Source: a bacterium (lineage in GTDB: Bacteria; Bacillota; Clostridia; Peptostreptococcales; Anaerovoracaceae). Taken from it: a stretch of DNA of 64,000 bases. Positions within the stretch are counted from its first letter, which is position 1, and each line of letters begins with the position of its first letter. Made by a program: the position numbers and the translations under genes. Below the pieces are notes generated by a model. It was not told the origin of the DNA. It did not search any database and saw nothing but the letters and a program-made list of their open reading frames with translations. The stretch covers positions 33,472 to 97,471 of the forward strand of contig CAVCFO010000003.1 in NCBI GenBank assembly GCA_963601575.1. The letters are read 5' to 3'. This document shows, in pieces, positions 433 to 44,251 of the stretch.

Positions 433-1572
433 ATGAAAAAAATTACGATTTTAGGCAGCACAGGTTCCATCGGAACCCAGAGCCTGGAAGTGATAAAAAA
501 GCATCCCGATAGGTTTGCGGTTGAGGCGCTAACCTGCGGGAAAAATACAGAGAGACTGGCTGAGCAGATTCAAATGTTTCGGCCTTCTTTTGCTGTTACG
601 GAAAAGGCAGAGGACGCGGCAAGGCTTGCAAAAATCTTTCCCGAAACCGAATTTTCCTGGGGCGAAAAGGGGCTTATCGAGGCTGCAGGCGGCGGCTGCG
701 ATATGGTTCTTAACTCCCTTGTGGGAATGAGAGGCCTTGCGCCTACCTGCGCCGCTATTGCATCAGGCAAGGACATCGCCCTTGCCAACAAGGAGACACT
801 TGTTGCAGGCGGCGCCCTCGTAATGGACGCAGCGGCAAAGGCGGGGATAAAGCTTTTGCCGGTAGACAGCGAGCACAGCGCTATTTTCCAATGCCTTGAG
901 GGAAACAAAGAAAGGCCGATAAAGAAAATTCTTCTCACAGCAAGCGGCGGGCCTTTCCGTGGATATACGACGGAGCAGCTTGAAAATGTAACCCTTGAGC
1001 AGGCGCTGAAACATCCTAACTGGAGCATGGGTCAGAAGATTACCATAGATTCTGCCACCATGATGAACAAAGGACTTGAGGTAATTGAGGCGAAATGGCT
1101 TTTCGACGTCCCGGCAGAGAAAATCCAAATTCTCGTTCATCCCCAGAGCATAGTCCACTCGGCGGTGGAGTTTGAGGATAATTCCGTGATTGCCCAGATG
1201 GGAATTGCCGACATGAAAATTCCTATCAGCCTTGCGCTTGGCTATCCGGACAGGCTAAGAAGCACAGGCAGAGAGCTTGATTTCTTCACGGAGGGCGCAA
1301 ACCTTACATTTGAGAAACCAAATCCTGAGGTTTTCGGCTGCATAAGGCTCGCTTATGATGCGATAGAAGCGGGAGGAAGCTATCCTGCAGCGCTGAATGC
1401 CGCCAACGAGGTGCTGGTTTCGGCATTTCTTGACCAAAAAATACGCTTTATGGACATACAAAAAACACTTGAACGCATTATGCATGACCATAAACCGGTA
1501 TATAATTTAGATTTAGAGGGTATCTTAGAAGTTGACAGAAAGACGAGAGAATTAACGGGGGAAATTTTATGA
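433..1572 (+). CDS. dxr: 1-deoxy-D-xylulose-5-phosphate reductoisomerase
   Basis: N-terminal NADPH motif LGSTGSIG, plus LANKE, DSEHSAIFQC and HPNWSMG motifs. 379 aa is a typical length. Confidence 0.95.
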   Translation: MKKITILGSTGSIGTQSLEVIKKHPDRFAVEALTCGKNTERLAEQIQMFRPSFAVTEKAEDAARLAKIFPETEFSWGEKGLIEAAGGGCDMVLNSLVGMRGLAPTCAAIASGKDIALANKETLVAGGALVMDAAAKAGIKLLPVDSEHSAIFQCLEGNKERPIKKILLTASGGPFRGYTTEQLENVTLEQALKHPNWSMGQKITIDSATMMNKGLEVIEAKWLFDVPAEKIQILVHPQSIVHSAVEFEDNSVIAQMGIADMKIPISLALGYPDRLRSTGRELDFFTEGANLTFEKPNPEVFGCIRLAYDAIEAGGSYPAALNAANEVLVSAFLDQKIRFMDIQKTLERIMHDHKPVYNLDLEGILEVDRKTRELTGEIL

Positions 1573-2609
1573 AAACAGCAATTCTTGCGATTTTACTATT
1601 CTGCGTGATGATCTTTCCTCATGAGCTGGGGCATTTCATCGCGGCGAAAAGATGCGGAGTACGCGTCAACGAATTCGCGTTCGGCATGGGACCTGTGATT
1701 TGGAAGAAGCAAAGAGGGGAAACGCTTCACAGCATCAGGCTTCTTCCCATCGGCGGATTTTGCGCCATGGAGGGAGAGGACGAGGAATCTGAGGATGAGC
1801 GCGCCTTCGGAAACAAGAAGCCTTGGCAAAAGATAGTAATACTTGCGGCAGGTTCTCTTATGAATGTCCTTTGCGCCATTATCATCATGTGCATCGTGGT
1901 GGGCGTGCGGGGATTTGCGACGACGACGATCGGCCAGATCACGGGAGGCAGCGCGGCAGAGGCCTCGGGCCTTGCAGTTGGCGACAAGATTATCAGCATA
2001 ACTACGTCGCAAGAAACCTACGAGATAGATCAGTGGGCGGACGTATCCGAGGCTATGAATTCTGTCACAAGTGGCGATGCCATAACCATCGGCTACGAAA
2101 GAGGCGGAAGCTCATATACCGTGGATGCAAATCCAACTCTTTCGGAGGGCGTGGATTCTCAAGGAAACACCGTAAATTACTATGTCCTTGGCATCAGCTG
2201 CAAGATAAGCCATAGCCCATTCAAAGCTCTGGTCGCGGGAACCCAGTCCACCTGGGCGATGACGAAGATGATGTTTGCGGCGCTTTTGCAGCTTTTTACG
2301 GGTGAGGCAAGTCCCGATGAGCTGACGGGGCCTGTCGGAATGGTGCAAATGGTCAGCAAGACTACCGAATACGGATTTTGGTATTACGGCTTTCTTACGG
2401 CGCTGATTTGCCTGAACCTTGCGGTGATAAATATGCTTCCGCTTCCGGCACTTGATGGCGGAAGGATCATCTTCGTGCTATATAGCGCGCTCACCGGCAA
2501 ACAGGTGAGCGAGAAGGTCGAAGGCACCATTCACCTCGCGGGGCTGGCTCTTCTGATGCTGCTCATGATATATGTTACCTTCAACGATGTCGAAAGGATA
2601 TTCGGCTGA
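1569..2609 (+). CDS. rseP: RIP site-2 zinc metalloprotease (RseP/RasP family)
   Basis: HELGH zinc motif in the first TM, a central PDZ-like segment, and NMLPLPALDGG (NxxPxxxLDG) in a late TM. It overlaps the dxr stop by 4 nt. Confidence 0.9.
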   Translation: MKTAILAILLFCVMIFPHELGHFIAAKRCGVRVNEFAFGMGPVIWKKQRGETLHSIRLLPIGGFCAMEGEDEESEDERAFGNKKPWQKIVILAAGSLMNVLCAIIIMCIVVGVRGFATTTIGQITGGSAAEASGLAVGDKIISITTSQETYEIDQWADVSEAMNSVTSGDAITIGYERGGSSYTVDANPTLSEGVDSQGNTVNYYVLGISCKISHSPFKALVAGTQSTWAMTKMMFAALLQLFTGEASPDELTGPVGMVQMVSKTTEYGFWYYGFLTALICLNLAVINMLPLPALDGGRIIFVLYSALTGKQVSEKVEGTIHLAGLALLMLLMIYVTFNDVERIFG

Positions 2610-2631
2610 ATATAGACACGGAAAGACAGAA

Positions 2632-3744
2632 ATGAAGGCGGAAATGAAGACAGAAGTAATGGATAATAGAAAAAAGACGAAAAAAATAAGATGCGGCGAG
2701 CTTTTTATCGGCGGCGACGCACCTATTACGATACAATCCATGACCAACGTGGACTCAAGGGACGAAAAAGCTCTCGTTTCTCAGGTCACAAGACTTGCGG
2801 ATGCAGGCTGCGACATCGTGAGAATAGCAGTGCCTGACATGCAGTCCGCAGAGGTCTTTGCGCGGGTAAGAAAAACTATCCCAAAAGAAATCCCGCTGGT
2901 TGCGGACATACATTTTGATTACAGGCTTGCAATAGCAGCCATAAAGGCAGGAGCGGATAAAATCAGGATAAACCCCGGAAATATCGGGGACAGCCAGAGG
3001 CTTCGGGCGGTGGTGGAAGCTGCTAAGGAGCGGCAAATTCCAATCCGCGTAGGGGTAAATTCCGGTTCGCTGGAAAAGCCGATTCTTGAAAAATACGGCA
3101 GGGTAACGCCGGCGGGACTCTGCGAAAGCGCCCTGAATAACCTGAAACTCATCGAGGAATTTGACTACGACAGGCTGGTGGTTTCCATAAAGTCATCCGA
3201 TGTAAGGCTAAATTACGATGCGCATAAGATTCTTTCGGAGAGCACCGACTATCCGATCCACATAGGAATCACCGAGTCGGGAACTCCGGCAAGGGGCAAG
3301 ATAAAATCCGCCATAGGAATCGGTGCGCTTCTCCTCGCGGGGATCGGCGATACGATGCGCGTTTCGCTGACCGCAGACCCCGTGCAGGAGATCCTCTTTG
3401 CAAAGGAAATCCTAAAGGATACCGGGATTCGGGGCGCAGGGATAGACCTCGTTTCGTGCCCGACCTGCGGCAGAACAAAGCTTGATCTTGAGCATGTCGC
3501 CTGCGAAGTAGAAAAAAGGCTTGTGCCTATAGAGCAAAAATTGATAAAATCGGGTCACAGCCCCCTCAAGGTCGCAGTAATGGGCTGCGCCGTAAACGGC
3601 CCGGGAGAGGCAGCAGAAGCTGACTTTGGAATTTGCGGCGGCGACGGGAGAGGACTTCTGTTTTCTAAGGGCAAAATCGTAAAAAATGTGCCGGAGGGCA
3701 GGCTCGTAGATGAACTGATTAGCATGATAGAGGCAAATATATGA
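2632..3744 (+). CDS. ispG: 4-hydroxy-3-methylbut-2-enyl diphosphate synthase
   Basis: GGDAPITIQSMTN motif and Fe-S cysteines in SCPTCGR and GCAVNGPGE. The ORF-track start at 2572 overlaps rseP, so ATG 2632 (alternative 2659) is more plausible. Confidence 0.9.
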   Translation: MKAEMKTEVMDNRKKTKKIRCGELFIGGDAPITIQSMTNVDSRDEKALVSQVTRLADAGCDIVRIAVPDMQSAEVFARVRKTIPKEIPLVADIHFDYRLAIAAIKAGADKIRINPGNIGDSQRLRAVVEAAKERQIPIRVGVNSGSLEKPILEKYGRVTPAGLCESALNNLKLIEEFDYDRLVVSIKSSDVRLNYDAHKILSESTDYPIHIGITESGTPARGKIKSAIGIGALLLAGIGDTMRVSLTADPVQEILFAKEILKDTGIRGAGIDLVSCPTCGRTKLDLEHVACEVEKRLVPIEQKLIKSGHSPLKVAVMGCAVNGPGEAAEADFGICGGDGRGLLFSKGKIVKNVPEGRLVDELISMIEANI

Positions 3745-6700
3745 AGAATCTTATAAGCAGGAGCATCGACTGGGAGGCTCTTGGCGGAGAAAAAAACGAA
3801 TATAAATTTGAACTTGGAAAAGGCGTGATTCACAGGGAATCGGGCGTGCTGGAGATGCCGGTACGCCTTAATTTTGTGATGCCTTTTTTGGATTACGAAA
3901 AGATAAAGGCGCTGATTATAAATAAGCTTGATATGATTTCTGAGGTGAAATTTGCCTTTGAATATGATGAGATGGCGCTCTCTGATGCTCTTATCGCAAG
4001 GCTTTTCCTGCCATATATGATCGAAGAAGTAAACGGAGATTATATTTCTATCACCAAGATGATAGACGAGAAGAAGGTAAGCGTAGCAGAAGGCGAGGTA
4101 ACATATTATGCACTGGGAGATTTCGCGGCGAAGCAGCTAAACGATAGGCTCGCCCGCAGATTTTCCGAAATCCTAAGAGATACCTTCGGCATAAGCATGA
4201 AGGTGAGATTCGAGAATAATGTCAATAAATATGAAGAAATGCACCGCTCATTCAGCGAAAATGAAGAAAAGGAAATAGAGGAGACCGCTCGCAAGTACCG
4301 AGAAGAAATCGAGGCTCGCGCTGCCGCCTCCGCAAAATCCGCGGAAAATTCGGAAAGGCCCGATGCATCTTCCGCCTCCGGAAAGAGTTTCGGCGGCTAC
4401 GGCAGCTTCGGCGGAAAAAACGGCGGCGAGGGTGGCTGGAAACGCAGGGAAAAAGAGCTTCCTGCGTCGGGAAACCGCATTATGGGCAGAGAAATTGCCG
4501 GTGGAAAGACCGCAGAGCTCAGAGACATCGACCCGAAGATGGGAACGGTGGTGATCGAGGGAGTTCTTTTCAGGATATCCGAACGGCTTATCAAAAATGG
4601 AAACCACCTTGTATCCCTTTTGATTACGGACAACAAGACCACGATCTGCGCAAAGGCTTTCGTTACCGAGGCGAAGTGGGGCGAAATAAACGAACTATTG
4701 AAGCCGGGAGATGCGGTAAAGCTCCGGGGAGAAGTCCAGTGGGACACCTTCGAGAACATGAACACCATAATGTTCAAAGACCTAGAAAAACAGGACAGAG
4801 CCGCAGGCAGAGAAGATACATGGCAGGACGGAAAGAGGGTGGAGCTTCACATCCACTCAAAGATGAGCCAGATGGACGGCTTTAACGAGGCGGCGGATAT
4901 CGTTTCCCTTGCCGCGAAATGGGGTCAGCCGGCTGTGGCAATCACCGACCACGGCGTGGTTCAGGCCTTCCCGGACTGCGCGGCGGCGGCGAAGAAACAG
5001 GCGGAAAAGGGCCGCCCCATAAAGGTTATTTACGGTCTGGAGGGCTACGTATTCGACGATTCGGACTGCAAAGACGAAAAGGAAGAAATCGACTACAAAA
5101 CAAAGCCTACGAATCATATCATAATTCTGGCAAAGACCCAGGAGGGCTTAAAGAATATTTACAAGCTTGTGTCCTACTCCCATTTGAATTATTTTTACAA
5201 AAAACCGAGGCTTCCGTGGTCTGTCATCGAGGCGCATAGAGATGGACTTATCATAGGCTCCGCTTGCAGTGCCGGCGAAGTTTTCCTGTCCATGGTGAAG
5301 CAGGTTACATATAACAAAAGAACCCATACCCAAAACGTTATAGAGCAGAAAAGCCCGGCAGAGCAGGAAAAAATCGCTTCCCGCTACGACTACCTTGAAA
5401 TTCAGCCTATCATCAACAATCACTTTATGCTGGAAAGCGAGTTTTATCTCGACGGAAAACGAGTAGAAACGGAGGATGATCTTCGGGAAATAAATAAGAG
5501 AATCCTCGCCCTTGCAGACAAGCTGGGAAAGCGGGTGGTTGCCACCACGGACTCCCACTATACCGAGCCTGACGATGCAATTTACAGAAACATCATCATG
5601 GCAGGAATGGGTTACGACGATGCGGAAAACGGCGAGGGTCTTTATATGAAAACCACCGACGAGATGATGGAGGAATTTTCCTATCTCGCTGGCAGGGCAA
5701 GGGAAGTTGTCATCGACAATACGAACTATATAGCAAGCCTCGTTGACGGAGAAATCCGCCCCGTACCTGCGGGGAAATTTCCGCCAAAAATCGAGGGCGC
5801 AGAGGAAACCCTACGAAAAACCTGCATGGAAAGAGCCCACGAACAGTATGGCAATCCTCTCCCGAAAGAAATTGAGGAGAGGCTTGATGTCGAGCTTAAT
5901 TCCATCATAAACAACGGCTATGCGGTGATGTATGTAAGCGCCCAGATGCTTGTAAATAAGTCATTGCAAGACGGCTATCTGGTCGGCTCCAGAGGTTCGG
6001 TAGGGTCTTCCTTTGCAGCCACCATGGCGGGAATTACCGAGGTAAATCCCCTGGACCCGCATTATCTTTGCCCGAACTGCAAAAAGATTATTTGGGGAGA
6101 TATGCAAAAATACGACTGCGGCGTGGATATGCCGCCCATGGACTGCCCGGACTGCGGCACTCCCATGAAGCGGGACGGCTATACCATTCCTTTCGCCACA
6201 TTCCTTGGGTTCAAGGGAAACAAAGAGCCGGATATCGACCTTAACTTTGCCGGAGAATACCAGCCGATCGCCCACAAATATGTAGGGGTTATCTTCGGGG
6301 ACAAGAATGTGTTTAAAGCGGGAACCGTTGGCACCGTGGCGGAAAAGACCGCTTATGGCTATGTGGCAAAATACTTCGACGAGAGAAATATTCCGGTGAA
6401 CAAATACGAAAAGGACAGGCTCACTCAGCACTGCACCGGAGTAAAACGTACCACGGGACAGCATCCCGGCGGCATCGTAATCTGTCCGGACGATCACGAA
6501 ATCTTTGAGTTTTGCCCGATCCAGCATCCGGCAAACGATGTAAATACGGATATTATTACCACACACTTTGACTATCACAAGATAGACGAGAATCTTCTCA
6601 AGCTGGATATTCTCGGTCACGATGTGCCTTCTATGATACGTCAGCTTCAGGACATGACCGGTACGGAGCCGCTAAAAATCGACCTTACCGACAGAAAGGT

Positions 6701-7652
6701 TCTTAGCATTTTTAACGGGATAGAGGCGCTGGATATAAAAGACCCGGACTACAAGTTTACCCATGGCTCCTATGCGATTCCGGAATTTGGAACTTCATTT
6801 ACGAGGCAGATGCTTGACGACACGAAGCCGGACAAATTTGCCGATCTTGTCAGAATTTCGGGATTTTCACACGGAACGGATGTGTGGCTGAACAACGCCC
6901 AGGACTATATCCGCTCGGGAACCGCCACCATGCGTGAGGTTATTTCAACCCGTGACGACATCATGAACTACCTGATTTTGAAAGGGGTTGAGAACGAAAC
7001 CGCATTTAAAATCATGGAAATTGTCCGTAAGGGGAAGAAGGATTTAGACGAGCAGCAGGTTGCCACCATGAAAGAACACGACGTTCCCGACTGGTACATC
7101 GACTCCTGCAACAAGATAAAATATATGTTCCCCCGCGCCCATGCTGTGGCATATACAATGATGAGTTTCCGTATGGCATGGTACAAGGTATACTACCCGC
7201 AGGAGTTTTACGCCACATATTTCACCACGAAGGTCGCCAACTTCGACGCGGAGACGATACTGAAGGGCAAGGATGCAATTCTGGCGAAGATGGACGAGAT
7301 AAACGCAAAGGGTGTGAACGCAACTCCGAAGGAAAAGGACGATTATACCATTCACGAGGTTGCCTACGAGATGTACGCAAGAGGCTATGAGTTTACTCCC
7401 GCAAGGCTTGGAAAGTCATCAGCCACGAAATTTGGCGTGGATAACGGCAAGGTGCTGCTTCCATTTACGGCAATCGAGGGGGTAGGTGAGAACGCGGCGA
7501 AGGCTCTCCAAAGCGAATACGAAATCAAGCCTTACGACACCATTGAAGAGGCTATAAAGAGGGCAAAACTCAATAAGACAGCCGCAGGGGGCCTGAGAAA
7601 TCACGGCGTGTTTGAGGGACTTCCGGAAACCGACCAGCTCAGCATGTTTTAG
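3741..7652 (+). CDS. polC: DNA polymerase III alpha subunit, PolC type, lacking the internal 3'-5' exonuclease domain
   Basis: PHP motifs (HIHSKMSQMDG, ITDHG, TTDSHY), Zn finger CPNC...CPDCG, GSRGSVGSS, KRTTGQHPGGI, KIKYMFPRAHAVAY and C-terminal QLSMF. Only about 20 aa separate YGLEGYVFDD from NHIIILAKTQEGLKNIYKLVS, the position where other PolCs carry a roughly 200-aa DnaQ-like domain. Confidence 0.9.
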   Translation: MKNLISRSIDWEALGGEKNEYKFELGKGVIHRESGVLEMPVRLNFVMPFLDYEKIKALIINKLDMISEVKFAFEYDEMALSDALIARLFLPYMIEEVNGDYISITKMIDEKKVSVAEGEVTYYALGDFAAKQLNDRLARRFSEILRDTFGISMKVRFENNVNKYEEMHRSFSENEEKEIEETARKYREEIEARAAASAKSAENSERPDASSASGKSFGGYGSFGGKNGGEGGWKRREKELPASGNRIMGREIAGGKTAELRDIDPKMGTVVIEGVLFRISERLIKNGNHLVSLLITDNKTTICAKAFVTEAKWGEINELLKPGDAVKLRGEVQWDTFENMNTIMFKDLEKQDRAAGREDTWQDGKRVELHIHSKMSQMDGFNEAADIVSLAAKWGQPAVAITDHGVVQAFPDCAAAAKKQAEKGRPIKVIYGLEGYVFDDSDCKDEKEEIDYKTKPTNHIIILAKTQEGLKNIYKLVSYSHLNYFYKKPRLPWSVIEAHRDGLIIGSACSAGEVFLSMVKQVTYNKRTHTQNVIEQKSPAEQEKIASRYDYLEIQPIINNHFMLESEFYLDGKRVETEDDLREINKRILALADKLGKRVVATTDSHYTEPDDAIYRNIIMAGMGYDDAENGEGLYMKTTDEMMEEFSYLAGRAREVVIDNTNYIASLVDGEIRPVPAGKFPPKIEGAEETLRKTCMERAHEQYGNPLPKEIEERLDVELNSIINNGYAVMYVSAQMLVNKSLQDGYLVGSRGSVGSSFAATMAGITEVNPLDPHYLCPNCKKIIWGDMQKYDCGVDMPPMDCPDCGTPMKRDGYTIPFATFLGFKGNKEPDIDLNFAGEYQPIAHKYVGVIFGDKNVFKAGTVGTVAEKTAYGYVAKYFDERNIPVNKYEKDRLTQHCTGVKRTTGQHPGGIVICPDDHEIFEFCPIQHPANDVNTDIITTHFDYHKIDENLLKLDILGHDVPSMIRQLQDMTGTEPLKIDLTDRKVLSIFNGIEALDIKDPDYKFTHGSYAIPEFGTSFTRQMLDDTKPDKFADLVRISGFSHGTDVWLNNAQDYIRSGTATMREVISTRDDIMNYLILKGVENETAFKIMEIVRKGKKDLDEQQVATMKEHDVPDWYIDSCNKIKYMFPRAHAVAYTMMSFRMAWYKVYYPQEFYATYFTTKVANFDAETILKGKDAILAKMDEINAKGVNATPKEKDDYTIHEVAYEMYARGYEFTPARLGKSSATKFGVDNGKVLLPFTAIEGVGENAAKALQSEYEIKPYDTIEEAIKRAKLNKTAAGGLRNHGVFEGLPETDQLSMF

Positions 7653-7669: not shown

Positions 7670-8512
7670 TCAGCAGGCTTTGAACTTTCCGATGAGGGCG
7701 AATATGCAAAAGCATATAAGCTCCGTCACCACAATTGTGGCTCCCGCGGGAGTTGAAAGCATGATGGACAGCAAAAGGCCGATTGCAGAGGTTGCCACCG
7801 CATAAAGAGCCGCACAGATAATAACCTGACGGAAAGTGCTGAAAATTCTCATGGCAGAAAGTGCCGGAAAGATGATCAGCGCCGAAGTAAGCAGCGCACC
7901 CACAAGGCTCATGGCAAGGACGATGACCACCGCCGTGATAACCGCAATCAGGAGGTTATAGGCGGAAGCATTTACCCCTGTGGCAACGGCAAAGCTTTCG
8001 TCAAAGGTGACCGCAAAGATTTTGTTGTAAAACAGCACAAATATCAAGATAACAACGATGGACATTGACACGCAGAGGATAATATCTCCCTCGGTCAGTG
8101 TCAAAATAGATGTGGAGCCGAAAAGCGTGCTGCACACATCGCCGGAAATATTGGCAGATGCGGAGAAAATATTGAGCAGAAGATAGCCGAAAGCCATGGA
8201 GCCTACGGAAATCATCGCCAGCGCCGCATCGCCTTTTATTTTTGCATTCTGTCCGGTTTTTAGAAGCAGAATCGCACTGAGTATTGTTACGGGCATGACA
8301 ATAAGGAGATTGTTGCTGACGGAAAGAACCGTAGCCATCGCCATGGCACCGAATGCCACGTGGGAAAGCCCGTCTCCCATAAAGGAATAGCGTTTAAGCA
8401 CCAGCGTGACGCCAAGAAGCGATGAACAGAGCGCCGCAAGGACCCCTGCGATAAATGCGTAGCACACAAAGGAGTAGGAAAAATATTCGCTAATCATGTT
8501 TATTAAATTCAT
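7670..8512 (-). CDS. znuB: metal (Zn/Mn-type) ABC importer permease, ABC-3 family
   Basis: 280-aa polytopic membrane protein of ZnuB/TroCD/MntB type. It is the last gene of an SBP-ATPase-permease operon and overlaps the ATPase stop. Confidence 0.75.
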   Translation of the reverse strand: MNLINMISEYFSYSFVCYAFIAGVLAALCSSLLGVTLVLKRYSFMGDGLSHVAFGAMAMATVLSVSNNLLIVMPVTILSAILLLKTGQNAKIKGDAALAMISVGSMAFGYLLLNIFSASANISGDVCSTLFGSTSILTLTEGDIILCVSMSIVVILIFVLFYNKIFAVTFDESFAVATGVNASAYNLLIAVITAVVIVLAMSLVGALLTSALIIFPALSAMRIFSTFRQVIICAALYAVATSAIGLLLSIMLSTPAGATIVVTELICFCIFALIGKFKAC

Positions 8513-9278
8513 CTCTTACCGACCTCCTTGGCTTGATATTGATCTTTTCCCCGCGGCTGCAAATCGGCTCGTCCACAAAATTGGAGAGGCGGAATTTGCC
8601 TTTAAGGGGAGTTTGAGCGTAGTCTTCCTTGCTGCCGAAAAACTGCATATTGCTTCCCATGTGCAGGATGTGGCTTGCGTATTTGACGGCGGCTTCGATG
8701 TCGTGGGAAACCATCATGACGGTTATATCTTCATCGTGATTAAGCCTTGCGATAATTTCGTACATTTCTGCGGAAGCCGCCGGATCAAGCCCGGAAATCG
8801 GCTCGTCTAAAAATAGCATCTGCGAGGTGGCGCAGAGGGCTCTCGCCAGCAGCGCCCGTTGTTGCTGCCCGCCGGAAAGATTGCGATAGCAGGCGTTACG
8901 CTTATCGTATATGCCGAGCTTCTTCATATTGTCAAGGGCGGCTTGCTTTTGGGCGCGGGAGTAAAAGGGTTTTCCTCCTAGCGAAGCCAAAAATCCGGAC
9001 AGGACTATTTCCTGAACCGAAGCGGGAAAGTCCCTCTGCACCGGGGTTTGCTGGGGCAGGTAGCCGATTTGGGAGCGAGACAGTCCATCTGAGAATATAA
9101 TCTCTCCGGAAAGAGGCTTTTGGAGGCCAAGCAGAGTTTTCATCAGGGTAGATTTTCCGGAACCGTTTTCTCCTACGATACAAAGATAATCCCCTTTGTT
9201 GATCTGAAAATTGACCCCCTCGGATATAGCGACGCCGTCATAGCCAAGGGATAGATTGTTTACAATCAGTTGAGACAT
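8490..9278 (-). CDS. znuC: metal ABC importer ATP-binding protein
   Basis: Walker A GENGSGKST, signature LSGGQQQR and Walker B LFLDEP. It overlaps the upstream SBP gene. Confidence 0.8.
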   Translation of the reverse strand: MSQLIVNNLSLGYDGVAISEGVNFQINKGDYLCIVGENGSGKSTLMKTLLGLQKPLSGEIIFSDGLSRSQIGYLPQQTPVQRDFPASVQEIVLSGFLASLGGKPFYSRAQKQAALDNMKKLGIYDKRNACYRNLSGGQQQRALLARALCATSQMLFLDEPISGLDPAASAEMYEIIARLNHDEDITVMMVSHDIEAAVKYASHILHMGSNMQFFGSKEDYAQTPLKGKFRLSNFVDEPICSRGEKINIKPRRSVRDEFNKHD

Positions 9279-10315
9279 TCGGAAATGACCTCCTTATTTT
9301 TCTTCATTGCGCCAAGATAGCTAAATCCGCCCGCGATATCCTCGGCGGTTACGGATTGCAGAGAGTCAAGCTCGCATATTTTTATTTGGCTTTCTTCATA
9401 ATTCTTACCGGAATTTTTTTCGGAATTTTCTCTGGCGGCGCGGATAATGGTATCTGCGAGATTTGTGCTGCTATTTTTGAGAATAAGGATGTGCGAAAGG
9501 CCCTCCGAAGTCAAATCCTCCGCAAGGTCTATAATCGTCTCAAAACTCGCCTCTGTTTCCGCCGAACATCCCTCAAACGCCGCATGAACCTGTATGCCGT
9601 AATCTTGCGATAAGTAAAGGAACGGGAACCGGTCGGCAAGCAAAAGCTCATCTGCGGAAGCCCCATTTACCGCTTCTTCAAATTCCCCGTCAAGGGTGGC
9701 AAGCTGCTCTTGGTAGCCTGCCAGGTTTTGTCTGTATAAATCCTCGTTTGCGGGATCCAGCATGGAAACCGTCTCGGCAATTTTCTCGCAGAAAACAGAT
9801 GCCATCTTCAGGGAAAGCCAAATATGCTCGTCCGCCTCGTGTTCATGCTCCTGCTCGTGGCTATGCCCATGGTCGTGATCGTGATCGTGATCTTCCTGCT
9901 CGTATTCGGGGAAGAGGAGCGGATTTTCTGTGAAAAATTCCATCAGCGAGAGCGTGTCGAAACCGCCCCGCTCCGAAGAAGCTATAGCCTCATCTATCCA
10001 ATATTCCGAAATTCCTCCGGTATAGATCAAAAGGTCGCAGTTTGCAAGGCTTACCATATCCGAAACCGAAGGCTGGTAGCTATGCATATCAATGCCGCTT
10101 TCGTTGAGGAGACTTAGGGAAAGGCCGCCTGGATTTTCTCCGATGATATTCCTAGTCCAGTCATACTCTGCGAAGCCTGCGCAGAGAATAAGCCTAGAGC
10201 TCCCATCATTTGAAATTTTTATATCATTTTGACTGCTGCCCGCGCATCCTGTGGGCAGAATCAGCAGCGCGGCGATAGCTAGCATCGCCGCAAGTTTATA
10301 AATCCTTTTTTTCAT
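9266..10315 (-). CDS. znuA: zinc-type ABC substrate-binding lipoprotein with a His/Asp/Glu-rich loop
   Basis: Lipoprotein signal MKKRIYKLAAMLAIAALLILPTGC and a His-rich loop EQEDHDHDHDHGHSHEQEHEHEADEH typical of ZnuA/AdcA. The ATG at 10315 is preferred over the ORF-track start at 10345. Confidence 0.8.
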   Translation of the reverse strand: MKKRIYKLAAMLAIAALLILPTGCAGSSQNDIKISNDGSSRLILCAGFAEYDWTRNIIGENPGGLSLSLLNESGIDMHSYQPSVSDMVSLANCDLLIYTGGISEYWIDEAIASSERGGFDTLSLMEFFTENPLLFPEYEQEDHDHDHDHGHSHEQEHEHEADEHIWLSLKMASVFCEKIAETVSMLDPANEDLYRQNLAGYQEQLATLDGEFEEAVNGASADELLLADRFPFLYLSQDYGIQVHAAFEGCSAETEASFETIIDLAEDLTSEGLSHILILKNSSTNLADTIIRAARENSEKNSGKNYEESQIKICELDSLQSVTAEDIAGGFSYLGAMKKNKEVISECLN

Positions 10316-10326
10316 AGCAAACCTAT

Positions 10327-10375
10327 TGTAACATAAATTCATCAAAATGAAAATCTCATATGTAACATAAATTCA
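10327..10375 (-). repeat. two exact 15-bp direct repeats TGTAACATAAATTCA (10327-10341, 10361-10375; 34-bp period) in the znuA promoter region
   Basis: Read directly. On the coding (minus) strand each copy reads TGAATTTATGTTACA and contributes a TGnTACAAT/TGnTACATA extended -10-like element. Confidence 0.6.
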
Positions 10376-13181: not shown

Positions 13182-15080
13182 TTATTCTTGATATTCTATT
13201 CCAATTTCTTTCAGAACCGCAAGAGTATTTTCGTCCTCTTTCGTAACGTCAAAGGCGATGGTAAGGGTATCGGACTGCTGCGCCCGTATCCCGCGCAAGC
13301 TTTTGGCATCCGAGACAGGAGTTTTCAAATTGACGCAGACCGACACGCCGAAAAGCTCGTGAGAAGTCCTGCTATCGAGAAGCTCGCACATATCGTAGAA
13401 GCTCATCTTCTTGAAATCCTCGTCCCTTGCCGTCACGATCTTTTCCACATCTTCGCGGTTGATGGAAATTTTCTTCTGATCATTCTCGTCCTCGTAGTAA
13501 TCCGCGCTCAGAGAATAAGTCTCGGCAGTTGCGCTCTCAAATCCCGAAAGATTTATTTTGTCCGCGCCTGTAAAATAGGATTTCCAGTCCTCCGAGGCGA
13601 CAACTCTGTTGATCAGCGCCTTGCTTTCTTCATCCAAATTGAAATAATATTCGCGCCTAAAATTCGAGCCGTTCTTCATCTTGTACTCAAAAGTCACGCT
13701 CTCCCGAATAGGCTCCGGCTCATCAGATGAGGAATCCTCTATGGTAGTTTGAAGCGAAGTGAAAATGTCATTTTCCACGATATATTTTTCAAGTTCATAC
13801 ATGGCAGAAATTACCTCAGGGTCCGTTGAAATTACAGGACTTTGCCTGAGGTCGTATCCGCCTCCGCTGTACATATATGTCGATGAGGTGGCATACCAAA
13901 AGGTCGAATTGCTGAGAGTCACCGACTCGATCCTGTCCTCCTCCGGCAGTCTCTTTGAGAATCCGCTAAGGTCAAAAACCGTAAAGGCTGTAAACAGCGC
14001 TGCGATAAGGAGGTAAAGGCACAGCGAAATCAGATTTTGCCGGCTAAAAACCTTGATCGACTTTGCGATAACGATTTTGACAATCAGGAATGTCACAAGA
14101 GCACCAACCGCCATTCCCAGGATCAGCATGGATTTCTTGCTGTCCGTGATACCATAAAGTATCCAGCCGAAAGCGGTCATTCCGACGAAAGTTATGAGAT
14201 AGGTGATGATTTCCTCGGTAAGCCTGAAAATCATCGAATCTCCTACCTTTTCAAGCCTTGCTCTGCCGTATGCAAACCGAGCCAAAATCAGCAATACAAT
14301 CGCCGCGGCAAGGTATTTCATCTCAAGGGCGATCCCCGCACCCTCGTTCCAATAGGAGAGCTTGCGGATAATCGGATTCGCTTCTAACATCAAATTCTGC
14401 ATAAAGTCGCCCATGCCCACATATCCAAGCAGGAAAGCAGCGCAGAACTCATTTATAATGAACAGTGTTGCCGGCACTATCATGAAGAATACGCCGGAAA
14501 TCAAAAGCTGCATAACCCCTGTTCCCACCAGGGAGCCTGCAAATACGAACATTCCATAGAAAAATGTCACAATTACAACGGAATCTCCCAGCCAGCCAAG
14601 CACGGCTTTTGCGGTGTAGACATTTTCCACGGCAAGACTGTAATCGCTTACCCTATATAATGAAGAACTTGTATCCGGCTGCACGTCTTTCATCAGCAAA
14701 AGATAAAGCACGCACATCACAAGTAGCGGAAGCACGCACATCAGCCAGCCCGTAAGAATCTGCGTATTAAACAGCCGTGACTTGCTATAAGGCTGCGAAT
14801 GCAAGGCAAAGGCACGATTCTGCTTGTGGACAAAGCTCATCATTACGCAGGCAGAAACCAGCGGCACGAAGATAAGCAGCGGCACAAACACCCAGCTGAG
14901 ATTCTGAAAATTGTTCGAAATCGTCGAGCTTATCTTGTACAGATTATCATAATCCACTATAATCGGAAAAATCCCGCCGAAAAAGTACAGCACCAGCGAA
15001 AGCACCGGAATGTACCAATACATTCTGAAATTTTCTATTATAAGGGCAGGCGAAAGCGCAAACAGATTTTTATTTTTCAT
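13182..15080 (-). CDS. polytopic membrane protein, presumed permease partner of the adjacent ABC ATPase, with a roughly 250-aa C-terminal soluble/extracytoplasmic domain
   Basis: 632 aa. About 10 predicted TM helices in the first ~370 aa are followed by an acidic soluble domain. The start overlaps the stop of the ABC ATPase gene (operon). Confidence 0.65.
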   Translation of the reverse strand: MKNKNLFALSPALIIENFRMYWYIPVLSLVLYFFGGIFPIIVDYDNLYKISSTISNNFQNLSWVFVPLLIFVPLVSACVMMSFVHKQNRAFALHSQPYSKSRLFNTQILTGWLMCVLPLLVMCVLYLLLMKDVQPDTSSSLYRVSDYSLAVENVYTAKAVLGWLGDSVVIVTFFYGMFVFAGSLVGTGVMQLLISGVFFMIVPATLFIINEFCAAFLLGYVGMGDFMQNLMLEANPIIRKLSYWNEGAGIALEMKYLAAAIVLLILARFAYGRARLEKVGDSMIFRLTEEIITYLITFVGMTAFGWILYGITDSKKSMLILGMAVGALVTFLIVKIVIAKSIKVFSRQNLISLCLYLLIAALFTAFTVFDLSGFSKRLPEEDRIESVTLSNSTFWYATSSTYMYSGGGYDLRQSPVISTDPEVISAMYELEKYIVENDIFTSLQTTIEDSSSDEPEPIRESVTFEYKMKNGSNFRREYYFNLDEESKALINRVVASEDWKSYFTGADKINLSGFESATAETYSLSADYYEDENDQKKISINREDVEKIVTARDEDFKKMSFYDMCELLDSRTSHELFGVSVCVNLKTPVSDAKSLRGIRAQQSDTLTIAFDVTKEDENTLAVLKEIGIEYQE

Positions 15081-27215: not shown

Positions 27216-29036
27216 ATGAAAAAGTTAATTAAAAAATGTTTGATATTTAGCATGGCGCTGGCGATGATATTGACATCCATGAGCGCGTTTGCGTTTGCAG
27301 AGGAGACTGAAGCTTCAGCCTCAGATGATCCGGAATATGTAGTAACGGGATATAGCATTACTAAATTGAACGGTAGCGATGTAAGTGCGGGGAAAATAGT
27401 TACCATAAACAAAGGTAATACAGTAACCATTTCGGTGGATATAAAATTGAACACTACAGATAAAATTGTTAGCACCTACGAGGTATTGAGACATGAGGAT
27501 AGTTTTAGTGGTGGCGATGCACCGACTATGACATGGACAGAAGGTACTAATAAATACAACATTGTGGTGAAAGACCTGGTATACAAAGGAACAGGACAAA
27601 GCCTGGTGTTAATGGTGCAAAACGGAACGGGATATGACACTTTGAAAGTCACCGTTGTCGAGGCAAAGGAGTACACAGAGCCGACCACCGACAGCAGCGA
27701 CAGCACCTATACTCCGGACAAGACTCCGGCTCCGAAGGCTATATTCAGCAGAAACGAGCTCACAAGCGATATCAAGGCAGGAGAGACCAGAACTGTAACA
27801 ATAAATGTCAAGAACGTGGGTAAGGCCAACATGACAAATCCTGTTCTCACGCTCACGCCGTCGGATGCCCTCATGATCGTAGGCGGCTCGACATCCTTTG
27901 AGATGTCATCTATAAACACGGGAAAGACCGGTTCTGTGAGCCTGCAGGTGAAGGCCCTCAGCAAGATCGAAAGCGCTAGCCAATATCTGGATGCGGAGCT
28001 TGACTATGACTATTATGACGGAACGAGCACGACAAGCAATAGCGTCAAGGGCAAAGTCTCCATCCCGGCGACCGTAACCAAAACCGAAGATACGGCCACG
28101 GATGAGGCAGGAAATCCCGTGCCGAATATTATAGTAACCAAATTCAGCTATGGCAACGAATCCGTTGCCGCAGGGAGCAATTTCACATTCTCCTTCAAAT
28201 TCAAAAATACCAGCAGCGAGCTTAACGTAGACAACGTGGTAGTTACCGTGGACGGCGGGGAAAACCTCATGCTCAGCGGCAGCACTAACTCCTTCTTCTT
28301 TAACAAGATAAAGGCGGGCAGCTCCAAGACCGTGAGCGTTCCGATGAAGGCGCTAAAAACTCTGGCGGTAAACTCCCAGGTGGTTTCCGTGAATTTCAAA
28401 TATGAATATGTTGACCAGAACAAGAGAACTCAGGCAACTTCGGATGCCAAGCTTTCGGTACCTGTTTATCAGCCGGACAAATTCGAAATAACGCAGCCGG
28501 TTCTTCCGGACTACATATCAGAGGGTGAGGAGGTAACCCTCACGCTCAATTATGTAAACAAGGGCAAGACCGAAGTTTCCAATGTGGAGGCGAGCCTTGA
28601 GGGAGATGTTACTTCCTCCAACTCTTTGCAAAATATCGGAAATCTCGAAGCCGGAAAGAGCGGAGCCATCGTATTTGCTGTAACCGCAGGAGCAGCGGGC
28701 GAAAACGAGTTTGATGTAAAGATCAGCTACGAGGACAGCAACGGGGACACGAAAGAAAGGATTTTCCCGGTAACCATGTCCGTTCAGGCTATGGAGCCTT
28801 ATGTTCCGGACGATAGTATCGACAATGGAGGAGATACAGGAGAAGAAACCGGAGGATTTAACTGGTGGATTCTTGCCGCTATCGCAGTCGTTCTTGCAAT
28901 TGCGGCTACAATAATTCTCAAAAAGAGAAAAAAAGCAAAGGCAGCAAAGCAAGAGCAGGCGCTCTGGGACAGCTGGGATAATGAGCTTGGCAGCGATGAG
29001 GAAAGTGCAGGAAGCAATGACAAAGGGGATAAATAA
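27216..29036 (+). CDS. type-I membrane protein with four Ig-like/CARDB-like (COG1361-type) beta-sandwich repeats
   Basis: Signal peptide ending AFAFA-EE. Three ~115-aa repeats share the pattern (A)G(E/S)..T.T..(V/F)KN.G..., followed by a C-terminal TM (WWILAAIAVVLAIAATIIL), KKRKKAKAAK and an acidic tail. TAATG overlap with the permease gene. Confidence 0.8.
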   Translation: MKKLIKKCLIFSMALAMILTSMSAFAFAEETEASASDDPEYVVTGYSITKLNGSDVSAGKIVTINKGNTVTISVDIKLNTTDKIVSTYEVLRHEDSFSGGDAPTMTWTEGTNKYNIVVKDLVYKGTGQSLVLMVQNGTGYDTLKVTVVEAKEYTEPTTDSSDSTYTPDKTPAPKAIFSRNELTSDIKAGETRTVTINVKNVGKANMTNPVLTLTPSDALMIVGGSTSFEMSSINTGKTGSVSLQVKALSKIESASQYLDAELDYDYYDGTSTTSNSVKGKVSIPATVTKTEDTATDEAGNPVPNIIVTKFSYGNESVAAGSNFTFSFKFKNTSSELNVDNVVVTVDGGENLMLSGSTNSFFFNKIKAGSSKTVSVPMKALKTLAVNSQVVSVNFKYEYVDQNKRTQATSDAKLSVPVYQPDKFEITQPVLPDYISEGEEVTLTLNYVNKGKTEVSNVEASLEGDVTSSNSLQNIGNLEAGKSGAIVFAVTAGAAGENEFDVKISYEDSNGDTKERIFPVTMSVQAMEPYVPDDSIDNGGDTGEETGGFNWWILAAIAVVLAIAATIILKKRKKAKAAKQEQALWDSWDNELGSDEESAGSNDKGDK

Positions 29037-41364: not shown

Positions 41365-42768
41365 ATGAATGGGGAAAACTTGAACAGCCTAAAGACTGTT
41401 AACAGGCAGTTCTACAAAAAGCTCACGGTTGTGGGCATTCCTATGGTAATTCAGCAGGTTATTGCGGTTACGCTCAACCTTGCAGATACGATAATGGTAG
41501 GCAAGGTTGGAGAAAATGCCCTTGCGGCTGTGGGAGCAGCGAATCAGATATATTTCATCTTCGGTGTCGTGCTTTTCGGCGTCTTCAGCGGCGCGGCTGT
41601 TCATGCCGTGCAATACTGGGGCATACGCGACATCGCAAGCCTCCGCAAGATAATCGGTATCGACTATACGGTCTGCCTCGTTTTGGCGATCCCTGCGATT
41701 ATCTTCGTATACTTTGCGGCGCCATTTCTCATCGGCATTTTTTCCGATGAGCCTGAGGTTGTCAAGCTTGGAACGAAATATATGCACATTGCGTGCTTTT
41801 CATATATATTTGCAGGGCTTACCTTCGTAATTTCCTATAATTCGAGGGCGATACAGGACGTAAAGGTTCCGACGATAATCAACGCGGGAGCGATCCTTAC
41901 AAACGTTATATTTAACTACCTTTTGATCTATGGCAAATTCGGATTTCCGGAGCTTGGGGTCGAGGGTGCTGCAATTGCAACTCTCATCGCGAGAATCGCA
42001 GAGTGCATAGCAATGCACCTTTCGGTATATCTCAGAAAGGAATATCCGCTAAAGGCAAGCCTCCGCGAGCTCACATCATATTCGCGCACGCTTTTTGCAA
42101 ACGTCATGAAGACGGCAATTCCGGTAATACTTACGGAAGGGCTGTGGGCGGTTTCCGTATCATGCATATTCGCAGCCTATGGCAAGATAAGCGCGGCGGC
42201 ATTTGCGGTTTCGCAGGTTGCGATGACCGTTACCGACTTTTTCCAAACTGTCTACTTTGGACTGGGTAACGCCTCAGCGGTTCTTCTGGGCGAGGTCCTG
42301 GGGCAGGGCAAGAAAAAGCTTACATATCAATATAGCCGCAACATCCTAAAGATCACCTGGATTTTGAATGTAGTGATGACAGTTGTAATAATTTGCCTCA
42401 GGCAGCCGATCGCAAATATCTACAATTTTTCGCCTGAGACAACGGACATGCTGATGAAGGCACTTTTAGTATATGCAATAGCGGTAACTCCGAAGATGCT
42501 TTCGTACATGATGATTTGCGCGATTTTTAGACCGGGCGGAGATACTATGTTTTGCATGTATGTAGATGTGGCATTTAATATAGGTATTCAGGTTCCGCTG
42601 GCATATATCAGCGTCCTGGCATTGAATTTGCCGCTGCACTGGGCAATGGCTGTGGTTGCCATAGCGGATGTGATAAAGATTATAATTTGCTATTATCGCT
42701 ACTTCACAAAAAAATGGATGAATATTTTTACGGGAGTAGGCGAGGCAGAAGAGGAAGATATATGTTAG
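41365..42768 (+). CDS. MATE-family efflux transporter
   Basis: 467 aa, 12 TMs, MATE-like N-terminus (IPMVIQQVIAVTLNLADTIMVGKVGENALAAVG). Confidence 0.88.
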   Translation: MNGENLNSLKTVNRQFYKKLTVVGIPMVIQQVIAVTLNLADTIMVGKVGENALAAVGAANQIYFIFGVVLFGVFSGAAVHAVQYWGIRDIASLRKIIGIDYTVCLVLAIPAIIFVYFAAPFLIGIFSDEPEVVKLGTKYMHIACFSYIFAGLTFVISYNSRAIQDVKVPTIINAGAILTNVIFNYLLIYGKFGFPELGVEGAAIATLIARIAECIAMHLSVYLRKEYPLKASLRELTSYSRTLFANVMKTAIPVILTEGLWAVSVSCIFAAYGKISAAAFAVSQVAMTVTDFFQTVYFGLGNASAVLLGEVLGQGKKKLTYQYSRNILKITWILNVVMTVVIICLRQPIANIYNFSPETTDMLMKALLVYAIAVTPKMLSYMMICAIFRPGGDTMFCMYVDVAFNIGIQVPLAYISVLALNLPLHWAMAVVAIADVIKIIICYYRYFTKKWMNIFTGVGEAEEEDIC

Positions 42769-43946
42769 TTTATTTGGATAACAGCGCGACAACAAGACAA
42801 TATGATGCGGTTTCGGATGCGATGCAATCTGCCATGCGCGAAAACTTCGGCAATCCTTCGTCACTACATTCGCTCGGACTCGCAGCAGAAAAAGAAGTCA
42901 AGGCATCGCGCCACAAGCTGGCAAAGTTCATAGGAGCATCGGATGAGGAAATCTGCTTCACCTCATGCGGCACGGAATCGGACAACACGGTCCTCATGGG
43001 AGCAGCCGGGGCGAAGAAACGGCGCGGAAACAAGATAATAATTTCTGCGGTAGAGCATCCTGCGATACTGGAACCTGCGAAAAAGCTTGAGTCTATGGGC
43101 TACAAGGTCGAATATATCGGAGTCGACAGGCTCTGCAGGCTCGATATTGAAGGGCTTAGAAATGCAATCGACGATGAGACGATTCTAATCTCTGTTATGA
43201 CTGTAAATAACGAGACAGGCACTATGATGCCGATAAAGAAAATAGCCAAAATAAAGGACGAATATAATCGCAAGAGCGGGACCGATATATGGCTGCATTC
43301 CGATGCGGTCCAGGCGCTTGGCAAGATTCCGCTTAACATGGCAGGAGAATATGCCGGCGTAGACTTTCTGTCTATGAGCGCGCACAAGATACATGGCCCC
43401 AAGGGAATGGGCGCGCTCTATATCAGAAAAGGCCAAAACCTCCCAGCGTTCATGCTGGGCGGCGGGCAGGAAAGACATAAGCGATCAGGTACCGAAAATA
43501 CGCCCGGGATCATCGGATTCGGAAAGGCATGCGAAATAGCAGATTCTAGCTTTGACAGGCGGATAGAAGCCATGAAAGAGGCAAGAGACTATCTCCTCAT
43601 GCTTATCAAGAACGAAATTTCGGATATTGCGATAAATAGCCCGCAGGATCAGGACGCATGCCCATCGGTGCTTAACATCTCATTTCTTGGGACGAGAGGC
43701 GAGGTGCTGCTGCATACATTGGAGCAGGACGGGATCTATGTATCCACAGGCTCTGCATGCGCTTCGAATCATTCCTCTGCGAAGGGCTCGCATGTTCTGA
43801 ATGCGATGGGGCTTTCGCCAAAGGAAATCGAAGGCGCCATAAGATTCAGTTTCAGCGAGTTTAATACGAAGGAAGAGATGGAATATGTCGCATGTAAGGT
43901 GAAGGCTGCGGTGACGAGATTCAGGAGGCTGGGAAGCTTTCGATAA
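42762..43946 (+). CDS. nifS: cysteine desulfurase (NifS/IscS class V aminotransferase), presumed sulfur donor for ThiI
   Basis: YLDNSATT, PLP-Lys SAHKIHGPKG, RSGTEN, active-site GSACAS. ATG 42762 overlaps the MATE stop. Confidence 0.92.
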   Translation: MLVYLDNSATTRQYDAVSDAMQSAMRENFGNPSSLHSLGLAAEKEVKASRHKLAKFIGASDEEICFTSCGTESDNTVLMGAAGAKKRRGNKIIISAVEHPAILEPAKKLESMGYKVEYIGVDRLCRLDIEGLRNAIDDETILISVMTVNNETGTMMPIKKIAKIKDEYNRKSGTDIWLHSDAVQALGKIPLNMAGEYAGVDFLSMSAHKIHGPKGMGALYIRKGQNLPAFMLGGGQERHKRSGTENTPGIIGFGKACEIADSSFDRRIEAMKEARDYLLMLIKNEISDIAINSPQDQDACPSVLNISFLGTRGEVLLHTLEQDGIYVSTGSACASNHSSAKGSHVLNAMGLSPKEIEGAIRFSFSEFNTKEEMEYVACKVKAAVTRFRRLGSFR

Positions 43947-43972
43947 CAGTCAGAGTGGCAGGTCACAAATGT

Positions 43973-44038
43973 GTCTTTGGCATTTAGTCCTCGTCGCGGA
44001 TGATTTCTGTGGCTTCACTCGCCATTGTTTGGAAACTT
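43973..44038 (+). repeat. 66-bp perfect direct repeat, copy 1 (nifS-thiI spacer)
   Basis: GTCTTTGGCATTTAGTCCTCGTCGCGGATGATTTCTGTGGCTTCACTCGCCATTGTTTGGAAACTT is identical to 44186-44251. Confidence 0.95.
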
Positions 44039-44086: not shown

Positions 44087-44185
44087 TCCCTCGACCACGA
44101 AATCGTAGCCGCTCCTGCGGAATCATGCCTTCGACACTTTGTGACCTGCCCCAAAAGTATATTATCGGAGAGGAAGGGCAAAGAA

Positions 44186-44251
44186 GTCTTTGGCATTTAG
44201 TCCTCGTCGCGGATGATTTCTGTGGCTTCACTCGCCATTGTTTGGAAACTT
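44186..44251 (+). repeat. 66-bp perfect direct repeat, copy 2, ending next to the thiI RBS
   Basis: Identical to 43973-44038, offset 213 bp. It is followed by AGAAAGGAAAAATT-ATG (thiI). Confidence 0.95.

Follow-up and report, generated by a model that had tools for sequence, protein, structure and literature searches.

The window analysed here, a stretch of 64,000 nt from the genome of an uncultured gut bacterium of the Clostridia (GenBank assembly GCA_963601575.1, contig CAVCFO010000003.1, positions 33,472 to 97,471), contains a polC gene encoding a PolC-type DNA polymerase III alpha subunit that has lost the DnaQ-like 3'-5' exonuclease (Exo) domain and retains the nine metal ligands of its PHP domain. 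As to identity and history, the gene is almost certainly a single, orthologous and functional PolC replicase, and a member of an Exo-less subgroup that has been described before. An Exo-less PolC with a complete PHP site is indeed already known and common in Clostridia; the observation is real, not new. With regard to function, we lean slightly towards the PHP domain being the working proofreader of this enzyme, as suggested by its ligand set. The gene and the segments of its product are as follows.

3741..7652, + strand: polC, Exo-less PolC-type DNA polymerase III alpha subunit, 1303 aa (open reading frame (ORF) translation, NCBIfam, PDB match, dN/dS)
4014..4343, + strand: PolC N-terminal subdomain NII, residues 92-201 (Pfam PF11490, E=2.5e-6)
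4548..4745, + strand: OB fold, residues 270-335, placed before PHP, which is the PolC rather than the DnaE arrangement (PF01336, E=1.4e-4, under the gathering score)
4836..5576, + strand: PHP domain with nine metal ligands, residues 366-612 (Pfam PF02811 over 368-555, E=1.1e-32)
5052..5117, + strand: 22-residue linker FDDSDCKDEKEEIDYKTKPTNH, residues 438-459, at the canonical insertion site of the Exo domain of about 190 aa (alignment; DNA read directly)
5808..7061, + strand: polymerase core (palm, thumb, fingers) with catalytic D831, D833 and D956 (PF07733, E=8.9e-58; PF17657, E=1.6e-24)
6069..6155, + strand: PolC Zn finger CPNC...CPDC, with C777, C780, C802 and C805 (translation; aligns to the Zn finger of 3f2b)
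7416..7625, + strand: tandem helix-hairpin-helix (HhH), residues 1226-1295 (Pfam PF14579, HHH_6, E=5.6e-9)
7635..7649, + strand: C-terminal beta-clamp-binding motif QLSMF, consensus QL[S/D]LF (translation)

A preliminary description of this DNA, made from the sequence alone, had assigned the 1303-aa ORF to PolC and considered it free of signs of a pseudogene, and both statements were borne out. The frame comprises 1303 codons with zero internal stops; a GAGG stands 7 nt before its ATG at 3741, and in the sequence ATGA this start overlaps the stop codon of ispG. The protein passed both PolC equivalog models of NCBIfam, NF001688 (1424.6 bits for a cut-off of 873) and TIGR01405 (1274.9 bits for a cut-off of 1043.45), and all DnaE models scored far under their own cut-offs. 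Its best sequence match in the PDB was the PolC of Geobacillus kaustophilus (3f2b), which aligned in one stretch with residues 266-1303. Pfam, the translation and the alignment with 3f2b gave the domain order N-terminal domain (NTD)-OB-PHP-Pol3-HhH, with a Zn finger in the palm and the clamp-binding motif at the C-terminus. The catalytic aspartates (PDIDLNF, KLDILG) and the four cysteines of the Zn finger were invariant in an alignment of 34 sequences (A1), and the QLSMF motif was invariant among the relatives; in Table S1 of Timinskas et al. (2014, Nucleic Acids Res. 42:1393, PMC3919608), the same motif is placed at the C-termini of PolCs. Purifying selection was strong, with pairwise dN/dS (ratio of nonsynonymous to synonymous substitution rates; NG86, only relatives with unsaturated dS) of 0.04-0.14 over the gene as a whole, of about 0.04 over residues 366-690, which include the PHP domain, and of about 0.02 over the polymerase core.

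Alignment A1 was also used to compute an AlphaFold2 (AF2) model of residues 262-1303. With a mean predicted local distance difference test score (pLDDT) of 71, a predicted TM score (pTM) of 0.54 and a poorly modelled palm, this model was good enough to confirm the PolC fold against 3f2b, not for an analysis of the active site. Its top structural match was 3f2b, a crystal structure without Exo domain (1044 alignment columns, TM 0.61/0.64). The OB region, which also aligns with the OB fold of 3f2b, was modelled as all-beta with a pLDDT of 80-89. The crystallised 3f2b construct is an engineered Exo deletion, the domain being missing from the structure (PMC3919608), and the natural PolC of the window therefore closely resembles it.

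To position the deletion, we aligned the window protein with MAFFT to the PolCs of 80 related loci from species-representative genomes (the best 80 of a pattern-based scan, each with about 10 kb of flank). The segment F438-H459 comprised 22 aa in the window PolC and its whole clade versus 209-212 aa in the 13 Exo-bearing Clostridia PolCs of the alignment (Thermotalea, Caloramator, Fonticella, Geosporobacter, [Clostridium] ultunense and others), meaning that about 188 aa are absent relative to these relatives. Comparison with a full-length PolC structure (9qpc) led to the same location, query residues 447 to 450 bridging residues 438 to 632 of that chain. Similarly, the C-terminal match to NF001688 (query 447-1303) does not enter the 1445-position profile before position 604, so that the Exo segment of the profile is left unmatched. 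The claim in the preliminary description that the DnaQ-like insert was cleanly gone was thus upheld, as was its estimate that the flanking strands lie only about 20 residues apart (22 by our measure); its range of nt ~5021-5140 was approximately correct, the linker proper being nt 5052-5117.

The Exo domain was also searched for by sequence. No RNase_T/DnaQ family match (PF00929) was found in the window PolC with Pfam, even at E<=1, and none of the 120 best protein clusters (63-100% identity, full-length members of 1131-1311 aa) contained PF00929. We then built a hidden Markov model (HMM) on the 13 Exo segments of the Exo-bearing Clostridia PolCs, which recovered its own 13 proteins at E<1e-96. 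Run on six-frame ORFs of at least 50 aa in the window and the 80 loci, it gave no match better than E=0.28 apart from these source proteins. E. coli DnaQ (locus L081), which served as a positive control and detected 13/13 canonical Exo domains (1e-13 to 1e-17), gave no match in the window PolC, in the ORFs of the 64-kb window or in the about 10 kb around the 64 Exo-less polC loci. The window PolC has neither the Exo I, II and III motifs nor the RNase_T fold that define the DEDDh exonucleases of the DnaQ/epsilon family. The exonuclease-HMM search of the ORF, which the preliminary description had put forward as a check on its reading, thus returned no match, and its statement that the window holds no dnaQ-like gene held with both queries (ORFs of at least 50 aa).

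The linker itself tells how the domain was lost. In canonical relatives the junction reads ...YLVNDGEPIV-[Exo]-...G.IDIKKLDTYH and in the window ...YVFDDSDCKDEKEEIDYKTKPTNH; the linker is thus composed of both flanks of the canonical insertion, the VNDGEP... side and the ...IDIKKLDTYH side. This argues for a clean in-frame excision rather than for an original absence of the insert. The linker is conserved within the clade, D440, E446, G448, I450, D451, Y452 and K453 each being found in 35-38 of 39 sequences, and its pLDDT was 76-84. At residue 448 (nt 5082-5084) the window PolC has Glu versus Gly in 38/39 clade members (consensus E-D-G-x-I-D-Y-K); L001, a relative with 95% identity, also carries the Gly.

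Previous data have shown that the PolC Exo domain is inserted in the loop between PHP ligands 5 and 6; the corresponding loop of M. tuberculosis DnaE1 borders a groove that runs on into the PHP exonuclease site (PMC5636811). The nine ligands of the window PolC are H370, H372, D379, H404, E434, H459, C509, D604 and H606, i.e., HHDHEHCDH, which fits the pattern taken to denote an active PHP site, HHDHEH[C/H]DH (PMC12926913). The PHP region had a pLDDT of mostly 80-94, in a model of moderate overall quality. The ligand set was invariant in 63/63 complete Exo-less relatives, in 13/13 Exo-bearing Clostridia relatives and in A1. The preliminary description had stated that all nine positions were occupied, which we confirmed residue by residue. 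The full set is no special mark of the Exo-less form, as the 13 Exo-bearing relatives share it. Since the nonad is intact in these relatives too, the intact PHP site predates the loss of the Exo domain and is no compensation for it; as judged from the ligands, it probably made the loss permissible. A recent survey indicates that Clostridia usually have three apparently active proofreaders, namely PHP in PolC, PHP in DnaE1 and DnaQ in PolC (PMC12926913).

The window PolC shares the OB fold, PHP domain, polymerase core, Zn finger and HhH with canonical PolCs (B. subtilis, S. aureus, G. kaustophilus; 3f2b, 9qpc), its identity with 3f2b amounting to 47% in the Foldseek alignment (1044 columns). 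It differs from them in lacking the DEDDh exonuclease of about 188 aa and in having Asp as PHP ligand 8 (ATTDSHY), where the solved Bacilli-type PolCs 3f2b and 9qpc have Asn (ATGNVHY). This Asn agrees with the report that G. kaustophilus PolC has one mutated PHP ligand and no PHP exonuclease activity, in contrast to the active nine-ligand enzymes of M. tuberculosis and Thermus aquaticus (Taq) (PMC5636811). The window PolC has the same nine-residue trinuclear-metal ligand set as the PHP-proofreading enzymes M. tuberculosis DnaE1 and Thermus Pol III alpha. Its ligands 5 and 6 are separated by 24 residues, a DnaE1-like length, as the corresponding loop comprises 29 residues in the M. tuberculosis enzyme, 18 in the Taq enzyme and 9 in the E. 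coli enzyme (PMC5636811). It is otherwise clearly distinct from the DnaE1 enzymes, belonging to the PolC branch of the C family (18% identity with Foldseek) and having an N-terminally placed OB fold and a palm that contains a Zn finger. PHP exonuclease activity has been measured for the Mycobacterium and Thermus enzymes. In E. coli Pol III, where alpha acts with epsilon, the polymerase likewise has no DEDDh domain; 5/9 PHP ligands of alpha are altered and the enzyme is epsilon-dependent (PMC5636811), whereas in the window PolC the ligands are intact and no epsilon-like gene is found nearby.

We next considered how widespread this architecture is. The preliminary description had presented it as an unusual replisome design for a Firmicute, a view that proved overstated: NTD-OB-PHP-Pol3-HhH without Exo accounts for 6% of PolCs and for 16% of genomes with PolC and DnaE1 (PMC3919608). 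In that survey the Exo-less PolCs, with one exception, occur in Clostridia and Negativicutes, classes that all pair PolC with DnaE1. Its Table S2 gives NTD-OB-PHP-POL3-HHH2 with DnaE1 in 12 genomes. Table S1 lists, among others, the PolCs of Acidaminococcus fermentans (YP_003399045.1, 1191 aa) and A. intestini (1210 aa) as NTD+OB+PHP+Pol3+HhH with 9/9 PHP ligands (HHDHEHCDH). The window PolC matches Exo-less PolCs such as that of A. fermentans in domain order, absence of the DnaQ insertion, PHP ligands, C-terminal clamp motif and class-level taxonomy; it differs from them in its lineage, Anaerovoracaceae, and in having its own 22-residue junction. In the other Exo-less lineages of the locus alignment the segment equivalent to F438-H459 comprises 8-33 residues, with differing sequences; overall, the junctions of other Exo-less lineages range over 8-38 residues, which points to separate deletion events. 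The PolCs of L040-L050 (Lentihominibacter, Candidatus Copromorpha and relatives), also without Exo, are 1137-1168 aa long, their region from the N-terminal domain to the OB fold being much shorter.

The survey of related Clostridia that the preliminary description had called for showed that the deletion recurs: 64 of the 80 loci were Exo-less, as were 30 of 142 representatives in a broader census. For the latter, 1.84 billion cluster representatives (50%-identity clusters) were searched, yielding 150 PolC representatives, of which 142 covered all PHP ligand positions; kin of the Exo-less query are over-represented in this sample. The PHP nonad was intact in 62 of 104 representatives with an Exo domain and in 27 of 30 without it (11-61 residues between ligands 5 and 6), a significant difference (Fisher p=0.002, in a test that ignores phylogeny and on this biased sample). 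The remaining eight representatives, all with an intact nonad, had at the Exo site an insertion of 142-291 aa that was unmatched by the Exo HMM and by any Pfam family, RNase_T included, even at E<=10. In these proteins (P0173, P0190, P0195, P0199, P0200, P0209, P0224 and P0242) FD.ETTG was not apparent by eye near the start of the insert, its place in canonical PolCs. The inserts may be decayed Exo domains or unrelated sequences.

Two trees bear on the number of losses. In a neighbour-joining tree of the 80 loci, every Exo-bearing sequence fell in one clan, so that independent losses could not be resolved from this tree alone. In a neighbour-joining tree of 138 representatives, the Exo-less state required 17 parsimony changes, an upper-side estimate owing to star-like deep nodes, and several Exo-less sequences were sisters of Exo-bearing ones. 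Taken with the differing junction lengths and sequences, these changes indicate repeated independent loss of the Exo domain. We also considered that the Exo-less state might be ancestral. This was rejected, as the linker keeps both flanks of the insertion and the wider tree shows Exo-less and Exo-bearing sequences intermingled; moreover, the Exo domain is part of the usual PolC architecture in genomes with PolC and DnaE1 and in those with PolC and DnaE3 (PMC3919608).

The explanation that we consider probable overall is that of an orthologous PolC whose Exo domain was lost because PHP proofreading permitted it. An in-frame deletion in an ancestor of the Anaerovoracaceae almost certainly removed about 188 residues of DnaQ-like 3'-5' exonuclease, a domain for which the usual place is the PHP loop that joins ligands 5 (Glu) and 6 (His), and the two flanks left behind became the conserved 22-residue loop, now fixed throughout the family. 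The loss would have been tolerated because Clostridia-type PolCs, unlike Bacilli-type ones, keep a complete trinuclear metal site in the PHP domain. The latter would remove misincorporated 3' nucleotides, as its counterparts in Thermus Pol III alpha and M. tuberculosis DnaE1 do. This would make the DnaQ module redundant and let it be lost repeatedly; it would be retained where the PHP site has decayed, as in the Bacilli type. The chances seem about even that this extends further, i.e., that PHP is the sole working proofreader of PolC across Anaerovoracaceae and many other Clostridia lineages, the DnaQ insertion having been repeatedly discarded, or decayed to a 140-290-aa remnant, where PHP is intact.

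Several points weigh against PHP proofreading by this PolC. As 13/13 of the Exo-bearing Clostridia PolCs have an intact nonad as well, its conservation is not specific to a take-over of proofreading. Three Exo-less representatives, two of which are fragments, had a degenerate PHP site (P0268, P0278 and P0292, with HRSLENSDQ, HHDHMHCNH and HHDSERCNR). Judging from these residues, they would be without any recognisable proofreader of their own; PolC can therefore exist with neither, and the rule of an intact PHP site is not absolute. In the literature we found no paper testing an Exo-less PolC or showing PHP exonuclease activity for any PolC. Finally, the structure prediction is of no more than moderate quality (mean pLDDT 71), and our view of the genome is that of the 64-kb window.

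The most serious alternative, though an unlikely one, is that DnaE1, with its own intact PHP domain, is the main replicase and proofreader, and that the Exo-less PolC is a reduced or specialised enzyme with little or no proofreading of its own. Timinskas et al. discuss DnaE1 as a possible main replicase in such organisms, the Exo-less PolCs being found in lineages with PolC and DnaE1 and some Clostridia having lost PolC altogether (PMC3919608); the three representatives with a degenerate PHP site fit this as well. Neither the 64-kb window nor the 80 loci with their flanks contained a DnaE-type gene, and we infer from the literature pattern that the host genome also encodes DnaE1. A reduced role is, however, hard to reconcile with the very strong purifying selection on PolC, PHP included (omega of about 0.04), with the retention of the clamp-binding motif, the Zn finger and the catalytic residues, or with the maintained operon position. 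Nor would the invariance of the PHP nonad in 63/63 complete relatives be expected for an idle site.

Somewhat less likely again is that a separately encoded, epsilon-type DnaQ-like exonuclease acts in trans, docked on the Exo-less PolC in the way that E. coli epsilon docks on the PHP domain of its alpha subunit. Bacterial proteomes contain on average more than three stand-alone DnaQ homologues, and the Exo domain of B. subtilis PolC is able to act in trans for DnaE3 (PMC12926913); the part of the genome that we inspected amounts to 64 kb. Yet no DnaQ-like ORF was present in the window or within about 10 kb of the 64 Exo-less polC loci, in a search whose control worked, and no conserved extra gene accompanied the loss of Exo in the neighbourhoods compared. 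Furthermore, PHP sites decay in the epsilon-dependent enzymes of proteobacteria (PMC3919608), whereas the PHP ligands are invariant here.

Judged from the window sequence alone, the short form might still have reflected the loss of about 570 nt in assembly, or have been a pseudogene or a paralogue without a role in replication next to a canonical polC, but these very improbable readings were rejected on the recurrent junction, selection and synteny: the 22-aa junction is common to about 45 independent assemblies from different projects (56-97% identity), the frame is open with an omega of 0.04-0.14, the gene order is that of canonical polC, and the architecture is documented in complete genomes (PMC3919608). 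The nearest protein cluster alone comprises 19 proteins, drawn from both NCBI and ENA assemblies. Not one of the 80 assemblies gave two polC loci among the best 80, though canonical PolCs at 54-57% identity were listed (a weak indication, from a pattern-based scan).

The synteny concerns the genes upstream of polC.

433..3744, + strand: upstream operon genes dxr (433-1572), rseP, encoding an M50 protease (1569-2609), and ispG/gcpE (2572-3744) (Pfam DXP_reductoisom, Peptidase_M50, GcpE)

The order dxr-rseP-ispG-polC was the same in Exo-less and Exo-bearing relatives, canonical polC of Clostridia included, indicating that the window gene sits in the ordinary position of polC. The nearest named relatives were Anaerovoracaceae bacterium, Emergencia sp., Lentihominibacter sp., Eubacterium sp. 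and Firmicutes bacterium CAG:238. These place the window in the Anaerovoracaceae (Clostridia; Peptostreptococcales), within the host classes of the Exo-less subgroup. The GC content of the window is 47.7%.

To our knowledge, no replisome combining PolC and DnaE1 has been characterised biochemically. An Exo-less PolC that occurs in nature and has its PHP site intact would offer a clean substrate for testing PHP proofreading in PolC, making an engineered deletion unnecessary. It also bears on the question of which proofreader is ancestral in C-family polymerases. There is also relevance to PolC-targeted antibiotics and nucleotide-analogue strategies, in that PHP-dependent enzymes differ in their vulnerabilities to inhibitors. 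If it is true that PHP alone proofreads, PolC would exemplify in nature the step from two proofreaders to one, and would give the first case of PHP proofreading by a PolC. The genomic finding itself repeats comparative surveys of 2013/14 (PMC3919608) and 2026 (PMC12926913).

Some further observations were made on the loci compared. Eight of them carry GenBank titles naming Bacteroidaceae, Flexilinea, Absicoccus, Alistipes communis, Bacteroides stercoris, Sphaerochaetaceae, Wallbacteria and Lutibacter (L001, L006, L011, L037, L042, L044, L073 and L079). All have a Clostridia-type polC, mostly in the dxr-rseP-ispG context, and the bins behind them look mislabelled or contaminated.

Downstream of polC, on the minus strand, lies a zinc-uptake ABC (ATP-binding cassette) operon (7670-10345), made up of ZnuA (9266-10345), an ATPase (8490-9278) and an ABC-3 permease (7670-8512). 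It is convergent with polC, a gap of 17 nt without a terminator-like hairpin separating it from the polC stop. This adjacency was kept only in the closest clade (L001-L011, L025, L037), and it is probably a coincidence, despite the Zn finger of PolC and its putative tri-Zn PHP site.

Elsewhere in the window, two large ORFs, 13182-15080 on the minus strand (632 aa) and 27216-29036 on the plus strand (606 aa), each adjoin ABC-transporter genes and matched no Pfam family at E<=1e-5. Neither Rfam families nor tRNAs were found anywhere in the 64 kb. A 73-nt direct repeat, 96% identical, occurs at 43966-44038 and 44179-44251, the two copies, the only ones in the window, lying 213 nt apart. The repeat occupies the gap between ORFs 42687-43946 and 44266-45450, which, as read by eye, presumably encode a nifS-like cysteine desulfurase and thiI.

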